Shown here in pieces: positions 2,041 through 6,671 of a stretch of DNA of 6,671 nt (its first letter is position 1; each line of letters starts with the position of its first letter). The stretch comes from a virus (taxonomy: Duplodnaviria > Heunggongvirae > Uroviricota > Caudoviricetes). A program made the position numbers and the translations under genes. The DNA is taken from the IMG/VR virus record IMGVR_UViG_2737471821_000005, one strand, 5' to 3'. The notes under the pieces were generated by a model that saw only the letters and a program-made list of their open reading frames with translations, had not been told where the DNA came from and searched no databases.

Positions 2041-2069
2041 TTGACGATTTCACTGTGCGATCGTATGTT
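2041..2069 (+). promoter_or_regulatory. Candidate rightward sigma70 promoter (pR-like lytic promoter): -35 TTGACG, 17-bp spacer, -10 TATGTT
   Basis: TTGACG at 2041-2046 and TATGTT at 2064-2069 with exactly 17 bp between them, in the cI-apl intergenic region and oriented toward apl/cII. Predicted transcription start near 2076, about 66 nt before the apl ATG. Confidence 0.45.
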
Positions 2070-3418: not shown

Positions 3419-3485
3419 CCAACTAATGAAATTAATGGCGTAAACCCGCCGGGCATCCCTTTATCTAAATTCAGGAGAATTGCTT

Positions 3486-3719
3486 ATGCGTAATATTGAA
3501 ACCCTCACGACCAAAACCGGACCGGATGATGCAGGTCTTAATCTTTTACTGACAGAGGCTCGTCTGGAAGAACGCCGGGCAAGGGCTGAAGCAATGGCTG
3601 CTCGCCTCGATAGCCTGGCGTGTCATATCACCTCCCGCCAGCTAAACCACGTCGAAGCGGCAGAACTGCTGCGTGTGACTGCTGAAGCAATCCAGAACGA
3701 AGCGCAGGAGATCCACTGA
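3486..3719 (+). CDS. Hypothetical small acidic, probably helical protein (77 aa)
   Basis: ATG at 3486 with AGGAGA 7 nt upstream. Its stop overlaps the next start (TGATG). No family recognised with confidence. Confidence 0.55.
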   Translation: MRNIETLTTKTGPDDAGLNLLLTEARLEERRARAEAMAARLDSLACHITSRQLNHVEAAELLRVTAEAIQNEAQEIH

Positions 3720-3946
3720 TGGCTGATGCAATGGATCTCGTACAGCAGCGCGTTGAAGAAGAACGCCAACGCCATATCCGTGCTGCCCGTGCCAAAACGC
3801 CGGGCGTGTCCCGCGTGCTTTGCGTTGAGTGTGAAGCGCCAATTCCGCCAGCACGCCGCCGTGCCATTCCGGGTGTGCAGCTTTGCATTACCTGTCAGGA
3901 AATCGCAGAGCTGAAAGGCAAACATTACAACGGAGGTGCTGTATGA
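3719..3946 (+). CDS. TraR/DksA-family C4-type zinc-finger protein
   Basis: 75-aa protein with two Cys pairs spaced as in TraR/DksA zinc fingers (CVECEAPIPPARRRAIPGVQLCITCQ). Start and stop overlap the neighbouring genes. Confidence 0.75.
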   Translation: MADAMDLVQQRVEEERQRHIRAARAKTPGVSRVLCVECEAPIPPARRRAIPGVQLCITCQEIAELKGKHYNGGAV

Positions 3947-4797
3947 GCACCATCCTGAAATGGGCAGGAAATAAAACCGCCATAATGTCCGAACTGAAAA
4001 AGCATCTTCCTGCTGGCCCGCGACTGGTTGAACCTTTCGCGGGTTCCTGTGCAGTGATGATGGAGACGGATTACCCCAGCTATCTTGTTGCGGATATTAA
4101 TCCTGATTTAATCAACCTCTATAAAAAGGTTGCTGCTGATTGTGAGTCGTTTATATCTCGTGCCAGAGCTTTATTTGAGGAAGCAAACAGGGAGGTGGCT
4201 TATTACAACATAAGGCAGGAGTTTAATTACTCCACTGAAATTACTGATTTCATGAAAGCGGTATATTTCCTGTATCTCAATCGTCACGGTTACCGTGGTT
4301 TATGTCGCTATAACAAGAGCGGGCATTTCAACATTCCCTACGGTAATTATAAAAATCCGTATTTCCCTGAAAAAGAAATTCGCGCATTTGCAGAGAAAGC
4401 CCAGCGGGCAACGTTTATCTGCGCCAGCTTTGATGAAACGCTGGCGATGTTGAAGGTGGGGGATGTGGTGTATTGCGATCCGCCTTATGACGGTACGTTT
4501 TCCGGCTATCACACTGATGGTTTCACTGAAGATGATCAGTATCACCTGGCATCTATTCTTGAACATCGGTCATCAGAAGGACATCCGGTCATTGTTTCTA
4601 ACAGTAACACGTCTTTGACCCGGTCCCTTTATCGTAATTTCACTCACCACTACATCAGGGCGAAACGCAGCATCGGCGTTGCAGCGGGGGAGGGAAAATT
4701 TGCAACAGAGATGATTGCCACTAAATCTGCTAATTGGTTTAGTGCCGATTTTAGTAGGGGACGTGACTCTACTGTTATTTTCGGGGTGCAAGTGTGA
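3943..4797 (+). CDS. dam: Dam-family DNA adenine-N6 methyltransferase (GATC-specific family)
   Basis: 284-aa protein from ATG 3943 with GGAGGTG upstream. It has the N-terminal AdoMet-binding motif (ILKWAGNK...[10 protein letters not shown]), the catalytic DPPY motif (VYCDPPYDG), and [16 protein letters not shown], all in the order I recall for E. coli Dam. The track ORF's 20-codon 5' extension lacks a ribosome-binding site. Confidence 0.9.
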
Positions 4798-5624
4798 AAG
4801 AAATGCACCACGGAATTCATCATTTCCATGGGACGCCTGTCTGGGGAAGTGCTGGCGACGTTCATCGTATTGCGGTGAGCGGAGCTGGCGCTTTCGTCTC
4901 CTATGTACGACCAGATCAGATTGCGGCGTCCATTCAGCACGCTCAGGTCGTCGGCATTGATAACGGCGCATTTTCTGCATGGGTGCGTGGGCTAAAAATT
5001 AACTGGAGTGATTTTTATAAATGGCTCCTGAACTATTACCACCATCCTAAGGTCGCTTTTTTTGTCATTCCTGATGTTGTGGACGGAGGTGAACGTGACA
5101 ATGATGCCCTGATAAACGAAGTTCCGAAAATGTTCTACGGGAAGGCAACTCCCGTCTGGCATCTGCACGAGTCAATCGAGCGGCTTATCGAGCTATGTCG
5201 TGAATGGCCTCGTGTCTGCTTTGGATCGTCTGGTGAATATGCGGCTATCAGAACTGCGCACTGGCATCGTCGTATGCAGGACGCTTTTGAAGCAATTTAT
5301 TGCCGACACAATTTCAAAACAGCTGTTCATGGTTTGCGCATGCTTGACGGTCGTGTGTTGGGAAATTACCCACTGGCGACTGCCGACAGTACAAATCTTG
5401 CCTGCAATGTCCCCAAATTTAATAGCAAATATCCTGAGCTGACGCGGGCTATTCAGGAGGCTGAGTATTCGCGCAATCTGACGGAAAAGGAGCTGAAAGC
5501 TGTCATTCTGAAAAACCGTTGCGCAATTTTAAAAGGTGCAATTGAAGCTGTTCGCCCACCTTCAGTTTCTGATTGGCTGTCGAATGGTTTGCAGCCTTCA
5601 CAGCTCGAACTGGAGATTGCGTAA
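4794..5624 (+). CDS. TGT-fold protein lacking the zinc subdomain; candidate DpdA-like DNA 7-deazaguanine transglycosylase
   Basis: 276-aa ORF whose GTG start overlaps the dam stop (GTGA), with GGGGTG 5 nt upstream. Motifs appear in TGT order: FHGTPVWG (cf. FMPVGTYG), [10 protein letters not shown] (cf. DSGGFQ, first catalytic Asp), [10 protein letters not shown] (cf. MIFDEC, substrate Asp), CFGSSGEY (cf. GGLAVGE), HGLRMLDG (cf. LMGVG), ATADSTNLA (cf. FDCV, nucleophile Asp). There is no CxCxxC...H zinc cluster. Being a real gene is high confidence; the function is moderate confidence. Confidence 0.55.
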
Positions 5625-5914
5625 TGAGCTACAGCTATTCCTGGAATGCTGAGAAAAAAGCAATCAATCCTTACGTAGAGACAGAAGAGCAATCTTCAGT
5701 TTCTGCGCTTTCAAACCTGATCGCTCTGTACGCTGCCGATAACGAGCAGGAACAGCTGCGCCGCGAGGCACTGAGTGATCAGGTCTGGGAGCGTTATTTC
5801 TTTAATGAATCCCGTGATCCTGTCCAGCGCGAAATGGAGCAGGATAAGCTCATTAGTCGGGCAAAGCTGGCGCATGAGCAGCAGCGTTTTAATCCAGATA
5901 TGGTCATTCTGGCG
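5624..5914 (+). pseudogene. 5' portion (97 codons) of a phage early gene interrupted by IS26; possibly the replication initiator by position
   Basis: ATG at 5624 overlaps the previous stop (TAATG). The reading frame runs straight into the IS26 terminal repeat at 5915, and the remaining 70 codons of the track ORF 5573..6076 are translated IS26 sequence. In P2/186-like phages the gene after the TraR-like region is the replication gene A. Confidence 0.5.
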
Positions 5915-5928
5915 GGCACTGTTGCAAA
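5915..5928. repeat. IS26 terminal inverted repeat (the end nearest the transposase stop codon)
   Basis: Exact GGCACTGTTGCAAA at the element boundary. Confidence 0.85.
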
Positions 5929-5966
5929 GTTAGCGATGAGGCAGCCTTTTGTCTTATTCAAAGGCC

Positions 5967-6671
5967 TTACATTTCAAAAACTCTGCTTACCAGGCGCATT
6001 TCGCCCAGGGGATCACCATAATAAAATGCTGAGGCCTGGCCTTTGCGTAGTGCACGCATCACCTCAATACCTTTGATGGTGGCGTAAGCCGTCTTCATGG
6101 ATTTAAATCCCAGCGTGGCGCCGATTATCCGTTTCAGTTTGCCATGATCGCATTCAATCACGTTGTTCCGGTACTTAATCTGTCGGTGTTCAACGTCAGA
6201 CGGGCACCGGCCTTCGCGTTTGAGCAGAGCAAGCGCGCGACCATAGGCGGGCGCTTTATCCGTGTTGATGAATCGCGGGATCTGCCACTTCTTCACGTTG
6301 TTGAGGATTTTACCCAGAAACCGGTATGCAGCTTTGCTGTTACGACGGGAGGAGAGATAAAAATCGACAGTGCGGCCCCGGCTGTCGACGGCCCGGTACA
6401 GATACGCCCAGCGGCCATTGACCTTCACGTAGGTTTCATCCATGTGCCACGGGCAAAGATCGGAAGGGTTACGCCAGTACCAGCGCAGCCGTTTTTCCAT
6501 TTCAGGCGCATAACGCTGAACCCAGCGGTAAATCGTGGAGTGATCGACATTCACTCCGCGTTCAGCCAGCATCTCCTGCAGCTCACGGTAACTGATGCCG
6601 TATTTGCAGTACCAGCGTACGGCCCACAGAATGATGTCACGCTGAAAATGCCGGCCTTTGAATGGGTTCAT
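5967..6671 (-). CDS. tnp26: IS26 transposase Tnp26 (DDE transposase, IS6 family)
   Basis: 234-aa translation ([39 protein letters not shown]...LVSRVFEM) matches Tnp26 as I recall it. Its ATG is the last three bases of the window (6671-6669). Confidence 0.95.

Follow-up and report, generated by a model that had tools for sequence, protein, structure and literature searches.

A dam gene and a dpdA-like gene overlap in the early operon of a P2-family prophage, probably as two independent DNA-modification genes

The IMG/VR virus record IMGVR_UViG_2737471821_000005, a 6,671-nucleotide stretch of DNA that we will call the window, corresponds to the left end of a Fels-2/RE2010-like prophage of the P2 family (its left arm) with a 186-type lysis-lysogeny switch. 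In its early lytic operon, a gene for a Dam-family methyltransferase (dam) is followed directly by a gene whose product resembles DpdA, the phage protein associated with 7-deazaguanines in DNA. An initial annotation proposed that the two genes form a two-enzyme module that marks phage DNA on both A and G, possibly as protection against restriction. We consider it probable, instead, that the two are orphan DNA-modification genes independent of each other, adjacent by chance of position in the early lytic operon. According to this explanation, dam would be a core gene of the prophage backbone, for which the usual rationale is that fast-replicating phage DNA is kept fully methylated, and dpdA would be a mobile accessory gene that is read together with dam.

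The distribution of the two genes speaks against a module. We surveyed 5,426 complete E. coli genomes, defining the backbone by the pair DUF2732-traR, and found the backbone in 1,237 of them, dam in 1,230, dpdA in 105, and the contiguous order dam-dpdA-A in 102. Thus, about 99% of the backbones carry dam irrespective of dpdA, but only about 8% carry dpdA. The latter gene is also common without a phage dam. For instance, it is found in the order traR-DUF5405-dpdA-A in phage SEN1, in one P2-type E. coli prophage, in the order traR-dpdA-A in Lelliottia and in IMG/VR loci, and, among lambdoid phages, in the ea regions of HK106 and BTP1. Furthermore, around 90 distant dpdA homologues (48% identity or less) have no Dam-like gene within 6 kb. 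The initial annotation had suggested asking whether the two genes co-occur across related prophages; they occur independently, and the proposed module is not borne out. The loci in genome contigs were found with a 14-sequence alignment of the family, as a search with the single dpdA-like protein returned none and a 61-sequence alignment was too diverse for patterns.

The dam-dpdA arrangement was found in prophages and IMG/VR contigs and in no sequenced phage isolate of the collection searched, in which 70 records match the region, none covers 80% of it, and the best-matching phages have dam followed directly by gene A. Neither is the adjacency described in the literature that we searched. Two loci outside the P2 type (L011 and L099; Rosenbergiella and IMG/VR) present the same two functions in another arrangement, with a Dam-like gene of 34 to 35% identity located not upstream but downstream of the dpdA homologue, by about 100 nt and 1.8 kb.

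Position seems to be enough to make the two genes neighbours. Wherever P2-like phages carry dpdA, it directly precedes gene A; dam, if present, always comes directly after traR. Adjacency therefore follows from position alone, and dpdA adjoins dam wherever the backbone has dam. The dam-linked dpdA genes do not form a single clade in the DpdA tree, being spread over at least three places with dam-less genes in between.

Pairwise comparisons of the window also show all three states, namely dpdA-less, dam-less and with both genes, on related backbones. Against RE2010, blastn gives 95.6% identity up to position 4718 and 97.2% from position 5699, and the segment in between (4719-5698) replaces 196 nt; for most of the E. 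coli prophages with dam but no dpdA, the alignment stops at nucleotide 776 of dam. In a Lelliottia prophage with a close backbone, it is exactly the dam segment that is missing, and in an Enterobacter-type phage, the traR-dam-dpdA-A block is colinear at 74.6% nucleotide identity. Because the final 79 nt of dam belong to the variable segment, the C-terminal tail of Dam (about 25 amino acids) differs in ancestry from the remainder of the protein. Both breakpoints, one in dam and one in gene A, point to homologous recombination with a donor already carrying dam-dpdA-A; in this way, phages exchange a segment made up of the dam tail, dpdA and the head of gene A.

The initial annotation also reported a 4-nt GTGA overlap between the two genes, from which it proposed coupled translation. 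The overlap and its coordinates hold, since the GTG start of dpdA and the TGA stop of dam overlap within the four nucleotides G4794-T-G-A4797. An NTGA overlap is kept in five lineages, as GTGA in E. coli, in Enterobacter-type phages and in the L083 locus, as TTGA in Atlantibacter, and as ATGA in the L105 locus. The overlap is thus real and conserved, yet it is generic to the operon, in which almost every gene pair overlaps, and not specific to dam and dpdA. For example, traR and dam share ATGA (3943-3946), dpdA and gene A share TAATG (5622-5626), and an ATGA overlap joins dam to gene A in the dpdA-less RE2010. In P2-like phages, dpdA would be translationally coupled to whichever gene precedes it, which is dam here and traR or the DUF5405 gene elsewhere. 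Placement of both genes in the early lytic operon, as first annotated, also stands, with promoter and terminator sites between dam and dpdA at or below the number expected by chance. On the same grounds, we rejected the possibility that dpdA is an autonomous moron with its own promoter and terminator. There is a weak terminator-like hairpin at 4752-4774 on the plus strand, followed by TTATTTTCGG, in the dam tail just upstream of the Shine-Dalgarno-like element of dpdA; such sites are not more numerous than expected by chance.

The overlap depends on which start codon dpdA uses. RefSeq/PGAP annotates the gene from the in-frame ATG 4803, as a 273-amino-acid hypothetical protein, which removes the overlap with dam. 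Nevertheless, GTG 4794 is better supported by the sequence, owing to the spacing of the Shine-Dalgarno-like element, the start positions of the homologues and the recurrence of the NTGA overlap. The GGGGU match to the anti-Shine-Dalgarno sequence lies 5 nt from GTG 4794, compared with 14 nt from ATG 4803, and the GGGGTG element has a predicted duplex energy of -6.3 kcal/mol with the 3′ end of 16S rRNA. Equivalent GAGGTG or GAAGGTG elements are found in other lineages, and in RE2010, such an element precedes gene A within the last Dam codons. The homologues that have no alternative methionine begin at the position equivalent to GTG 4794 and are also 276 amino acids long.

Some loci depart from this junction. 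In three Enterobacter-type IMG/VR contigs (L073, L074 and L076), the dam stop is lost at the junction near 6001, where GTTACG replaces GTGA, so that the Dam open reading frame (ORF) extends 25 codons into dpdA (309 amino acids) and dpdA must begin at a later TTG. One 36.6-kb Logan contig (P0011) encodes a 421-amino-acid protein in which Dam residues 1-192 are in frame with DpdA residues 47-276, which is either a true deletion-fusion or an assembly artefact.

With regard to the second gene, the initial annotation had considered that it might encode a DNA guanine transglycosylase. Its homology to DpdA is well founded. The only match of the protein in the family libraries is PHROG 887, "queuine tRNA-ribosyltransferase" (9e-97), to which the DpdA of phage CAjan is also assigned, and a profile of 61 family sequences aligns with CAjan DpdA in hhalign with 98.8% probability (E value of 8e-17). 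In tblastn searches against phages, the protein is 75.7% identical to SEN1 gp38, 54% to the DpdA of Pantoea phage MED16 and 34% to that of Salmonella phage 7-11, with a range of 34 to 42% across 7-11, HK106, BTP1 and SPN3UB. These last four and SEN1 (YP_009217891) are listed as DpdA-only phages in Supplementary Data 1 of Hutinet 2019. Phage RefSeq records name the orthologue "queuine tRNA-ribosyltransferase", although the gene itself goes without a name in over 100 E. coli genomes. The predicted structure, which is compact and confident (predicted local distance difference test of 93.2), has a (beta/alpha)8 barrel like that of tRNA-guanine transglycosylases (TGTs), and all of the matches with a functional name among the 34 found in BFVD are queuine tRNA-ribosyltransferases.

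Six residues of the protein (D56, D94, H123, H179, D198 and S199) are invariant among the 61 sequences, down to 28% identity. The spacing of D56, D94, H123, H179 and D198 agrees with that of D95, D130, H181 and D256 in bacterial DpdA (PMC10164549) and with that of H226 and D248 in Cap10. The TGT zinc motif CxCxxC...H is absent, the only cysteines downstream of the barrel being C204 and C243, and we rejected a canonical TGT (PF01702) because of this missing site and the lack of any family-model or sequence match. Pfam, NCBIfam and PADLOC scans of the protein gave no match, but the validated CAjan DpdA has no Pfam match either, and thus its absence here says little. Searches of PDB sequences with the single protein or the 61-sequence profile returned chance coiled-coil matches only. 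Since hhalign of the family profile against the single E. coli Tgt sequence gives a probability of only 1.2%, the link to TGTs rests on the fold and on the bridge through CAjan DpdA. Judging from sequence and model, then, the gene belongs to the "singleton DpdA" clade and would encode a minimal transglycosylase that has the TGT fold but no zinc subdomain.

It could be argued that such a gene is an inactive, decaying remnant, as it is annotated only as a hypothetical protein, the window copy lies in a prophage disabled by IS26, and there are the fused protein and the lost dam stops described above. This seems highly improbable to us, given that over 100 E. coli genomes carry the full-length ORF with 99% conservation, that the candidate catalytic residues are invariant in 61 diverse homologues, that the model is confident and compact, and that the family comprises 555 representatives when clustered at 50% identity. 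No compositional anomaly of note was found in dpdA.

The known DpdA proteins offer some guidance as to what the enzyme may do. The singleton DpdA phages of gamma-proteobacteria (group 3 of Hutinet 2019, namely the Salmonella phages SEN1, 7-11, BTP1 and SPN3UB and the Escherichia phage HK106) and MED16 (Simoliuniene 2021) have proteins of the same family and length class as the window, are catalogued without genes for the synthesis of 7-cyano-7-deazaguanine (preQ0), and infect enterobacterial hosts that make preQ0. SEN1 resembles the window in having dpdA immediately upstream of gene A, but it has the DUF5405 gene upstream of dpdA and no dam, unlike the window with its 4-nt overlap. The DpdA1 proteins of the Escherichia phages CAjan and 9g (Queuovirinae), which are validated preQ0 DNA transglycosylases, share with the window protein both PHROG 887 and the motifs DNGAFS, WHLHE, HG and DS(T/S), although identity is only about 20%. 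The invariant D94 of the singleton clade aligns with a serine in CAjan, which has an aspartate three residues later. In addition, CAjan and 9g have all of the preQ0 pathway beside dpdA and replace 25 to 32% of their guanines, in contrast to the 0.02 to 0.13% of guanines found as dADG (2′-deoxy-7-amido-7-deazaguanosine) in singleton-clade phages.

E. coli makes preQ0 for queuosine. The window encodes no genes for 7-deazaguanine synthesis, and SEN1 and MED16, the closest phages with a dpdA-like gene, are catalogued without them, so the enzyme would have to use the host queuosine pathway, taking either preQ0 or its amide precursor 7-amido-7-deazaguanine (ADG). The hosts of DpdA-only phages do encode the queuosine pathway (Hutinet 2019, PMC6884629). 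Trace dADG has been measured in the DNA of 7-11, where it represents 0.02% of G (PMC6884629), and of MED16, where it represents 0.13% of G and is accompanied by N6-methyldeoxyadenosine (PMC8306585). Because these two phages carry so little of it, we infer that the window enzyme, too, would most likely swap a few guanines of phage DNA for a 7-deazaguanine during lytic growth, probably at specific sites, with dADG at well under 1% of G as the expected product. The anti-restriction benefit suggested by the initial annotation is unproven; in MED16, the restriction enzymes tried were not blocked by dADG, and no protection from them was detectable (PMC8306585).

Whether the substrate is DNA deserves consideration. 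The protein might instead act on a protein or another molecule, as in the case of Cap10, or on host tRNA, and the trace dADG of its relatives would then be incidental. The 2019 catalogue allows that singleton DpdAs may have diverged functionally (PMC6884629), modification in 7-11 and MED16 is very low, and the best structural match, Cap10 of type IV cyclic oligonucleotide-based antiphage signalling systems (CBASS; PDB 9NTN), handles a deazaguanine-modified protein. Like the window protein, Cap10 has no zinc subdomain; its His/Asp catalytic pair has a candidate counterpart in the window protein, and it binds a 7-amido-7-deazaguanine moiety. Its score is nevertheless barely above that of bacterial DpdA (15.9 compared with 15.2), its identity is 11%, and the genes around the window copy are dam and gene A of a phage early operon, with no QueC-like Cap9 or CD-NTase partner nearby. 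Moreover, the homology to CAjan DpdA is clear, deletion of CAjan dpdA abolishes 2′-deoxy-7-cyano-7-deazaguanosine (dPreQ0) in CAjan DNA (PMC6884629), and every phage known to have 7-deazaguanine DNA encodes a DpdA (Hutinet 2023). For these reasons, we regard a substrate other than DNA as unlikely.

Two assignments to bacterial systems were considered and rejected. Membership in a type IV CBASS as a Cap10 would require partners that neither the window nor the intact E. coli D9 prophage has (Cap9 or a CD-NTase), and the similarity is structural only. The DpdA of the bacterial Dpd system (Salmonella Montevideo, PDB 7UI4) resembles the window protein in three invariant aspartates and a histidine with similar spacing, and the final mark of that system is dADG, as expected here. 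It is, however, 413 amino acids long, compared with 276, and the window enzyme lacks the zinc site; there is also no PADLOC match, and the neighbours are dam and gene A rather than the DpdB ATPase or DpdC.

The first gene is more conventional. Its product matches PF02086 (2e-76; 257 bits, cut-off 22) and TIGR00571 "dam" (318 bits, cut-off 114.85), and it presents the motifs KWAGNK at residues 6-11, FAGS (motif I) at 32-35 and DPPY at 179-182, so that the Dam-family adenine methyltransferase with intact S-adenosylmethionine and DPPY motifs described in the initial annotation is confirmed. The score against NF008152, the equivalog of E. coli Dam, is 288.7 bits, below the cut-off of 441, and by this measure, the protein is a family member and not the housekeeping orthologue. 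The best PADLOC model is "orphan methyltransferase" (5e-110), and the gene is indeed an orphan, with traR and dpdA as neighbours and no adjacent cognate restriction endonuclease. It encodes a D12-class N6-adenine DNA methyltransferase, of which GATC, judging by family membership, is most likely the target. GATC is not depleted in the phage part of the window (23 sites observed, 27 expected). The Dam of the window resembles P1 Dam and Fels-2/RE2010 Dam, all being D12-class alpha enzymes that have FxGxG and DPPY motifs but lack a cognate endonuclease. In the tblastn alignment, it shares 90% identity with RE2010 Dam, with the nucleotide identity given above for the region up to nucleotide 776, and it differs from it in the last 25 or so residues, which come from another lineage and arrived with dpdA.

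Several points weigh against the picture of two unconnected genes, the second of which modifies phage DNA. In MED16 and 7-11, the gene is tied to dADG by correlation, and the mapping of the catalytic residues relies on invariance and spacing, so that these are candidate residues. Searches at the level of HMMER (Pfam and PDB) and hhalign against E. coli Tgt show no relationship to TGTs. For the window copy, expression in a productive lytic cycle is doubtful, since IS26 cuts gene A. The NTGA overlap has been kept across lineages with proteins that are only about 70 to 83% identical, and the pairing arose or persisted in at least three places of the DpdA tree; both could reflect selection for the pair.

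These last two points lead to the possibility that dam and dpdA are a selected, co-regulated cassette, in which joint marking of A and G brings an anti-restriction or self-marking benefit that neither gene would bring by itself. The overlap is kept in all five lineages mentioned above despite Dam identities of 68 to 74%, the traR-dam-dpdA-A block is colinear between E. coli and Enterobacter-type phages at around 75% nucleotide identity, and MED16 DNA bears both marks (PMC8306585). In MED16, however, the two genes are not adjacent, the methylase is of a different family, and protection by dADG from the restriction enzymes tried was not detectable (PMC8306585). Nor does the near fixation of dam with or without dpdA fit a selected pair, and the same is true of the many phages with dpdA and no dam, whether SEN1-type, P2-type, lambdoid or the sister backbone in which just the dam segment is missing. 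A cassette of this kind therefore seems rather unlikely to us. We read the conserved overlap and the recurrence of the pair in favour of position, because dam is near-universal in the backbone and coupling is generic to the operon.

Double marking of phage DNA by the two enzymes is plausible, and a selected benefit from carrying both marks is quite unlikely. We would give an equally small chance to a more specific proposal, in which dam-dpdA is a two-mark counter-defence cassette whose singleton DpdA puts the QueC intermediate ADG, rather than preQ0, directly at a few specific sites. Such a cassette could mimic the dADG of bacterial Dpd systems or mask sites that Dam exposes, with the coupling to dam setting the ratio of the enzymes. 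The NTGA overlap, the recurrence of the pair and the fact that the closest structural match is the ADG-binding Cap10 are compatible with it.

If the two genes are independent, as we favour, then their adjacency is no new mechanism, because synteny explains it. The components were already known: orphan phage Dam enzymes have been described, singleton DpdAs were catalogued in 2019 and 2021, and both marks were measured in MED16. Nonetheless, singleton DpdA is widespread in temperate enterobacterial phages, and the DNA of the relatives bears very little of the mark. Natural dpdA-plus, dpdA-minus and dam-minus variants of one backbone make the role of singleton DpdA testable. Intact dpdA is present in easily handled E. 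coli strains such as ATCC 8739, APEC O78, UMNK88 and D9, and standard strains, ATCC 8739 among them, have the arrangement intact.

The features of the window are collected in Table 1. The nearest sequenced phages are of Felsduovirus types, namely Salmonella RE2010 and Klebsiella 4LV2017. The promoter-like site at the head of the operon is the only sigma-70-like site on the plus strand between 1900 and 5960, although such sites are in total no more numerous than chance would give, and from its position, it is the likely origin of the transcript that runs through dam and dpdA.

Table 1. Coordinates of the features of the window
Feature	Position	Strand	Remarks
Integrase	1-1131	minus	
Small ORF, 63 amino acids	1240-1431	minus	between int and cI
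CI repressor	1447-2022	minus	
Promoter-like site TTGACG-17-TATGTT	2041..2069	+	upstream of the apl/cII early operon
Early operon		rightward	order: apl-like, cII, fil, DUF5347, DUF2732, traR, dam, dpdA-like, gene A
DUF2732	3480-3719	rightward	early operon
TraR/DksA-type C4 zinc-finger gene (traR)	3719..3946	+	PF01258 4e-11; TIGR02419 67 bits; phrog_54
dam, 284 amino acids	3943..4797	+	ATG 3943 to TGA 4795-4797
Variable cassette relative to dpdA-less relatives	4719..5698	+	last 79 nt of dam, dpdA, first 75 nt of gene A
Shine-Dalgarno-like GGGGTG	4783..4788	+	within the final dam codons; GTG 4794 follows after 5 nt
dpdA-like gene, 276 amino acids	4794..5624	+	GTG 4794 to TAA 5622-5624; alternative start ATG 4803
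Gene A (rolling-circle replication endonuclease), 5′ end	5624..5914	+	97 codons; cut by IS26
IS26, partial	5915..6671	-	transposase 5967-6671 (minus), 234-amino-acid ORF; terminal repeat GGCACTGTTGCAAA at 5915

At the right end of the window, IS26 sits in gene A after codon 97 (junction 5914/5915), which leaves this copy of the prophage replication-defective. The IS26 part has thousands of IS26 matches, and the exact junction with gene A is absent among the 5,426 complete E. coli genomes. The gene A fragment is 99% identical to the N-terminus of a 790-amino-acid "replication endonuclease" of E. coli D9, whose intact counterpart of the region is annotated, in order, as DNA adenine methylase, hypothetical protein and replication endonuclease.

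Two other positions may hold accessory genes. The small ORF between int and cI, which is hypothetical in E. coli D9, has a signal-peptide-like N-terminus and several cysteines, and it occupies a typical lysogenic-conversion slot, where SEN1 carries a DUF2511 gene. In the E. coli D9 prophage (L001, 11134-14216), two hypothetical genes and one PIN-domain gene lie downstream of gene A and a DinI-like gene, and this slot past the DinI-like gene is possibly a hot spot for defence genes or morons in this prophage family.

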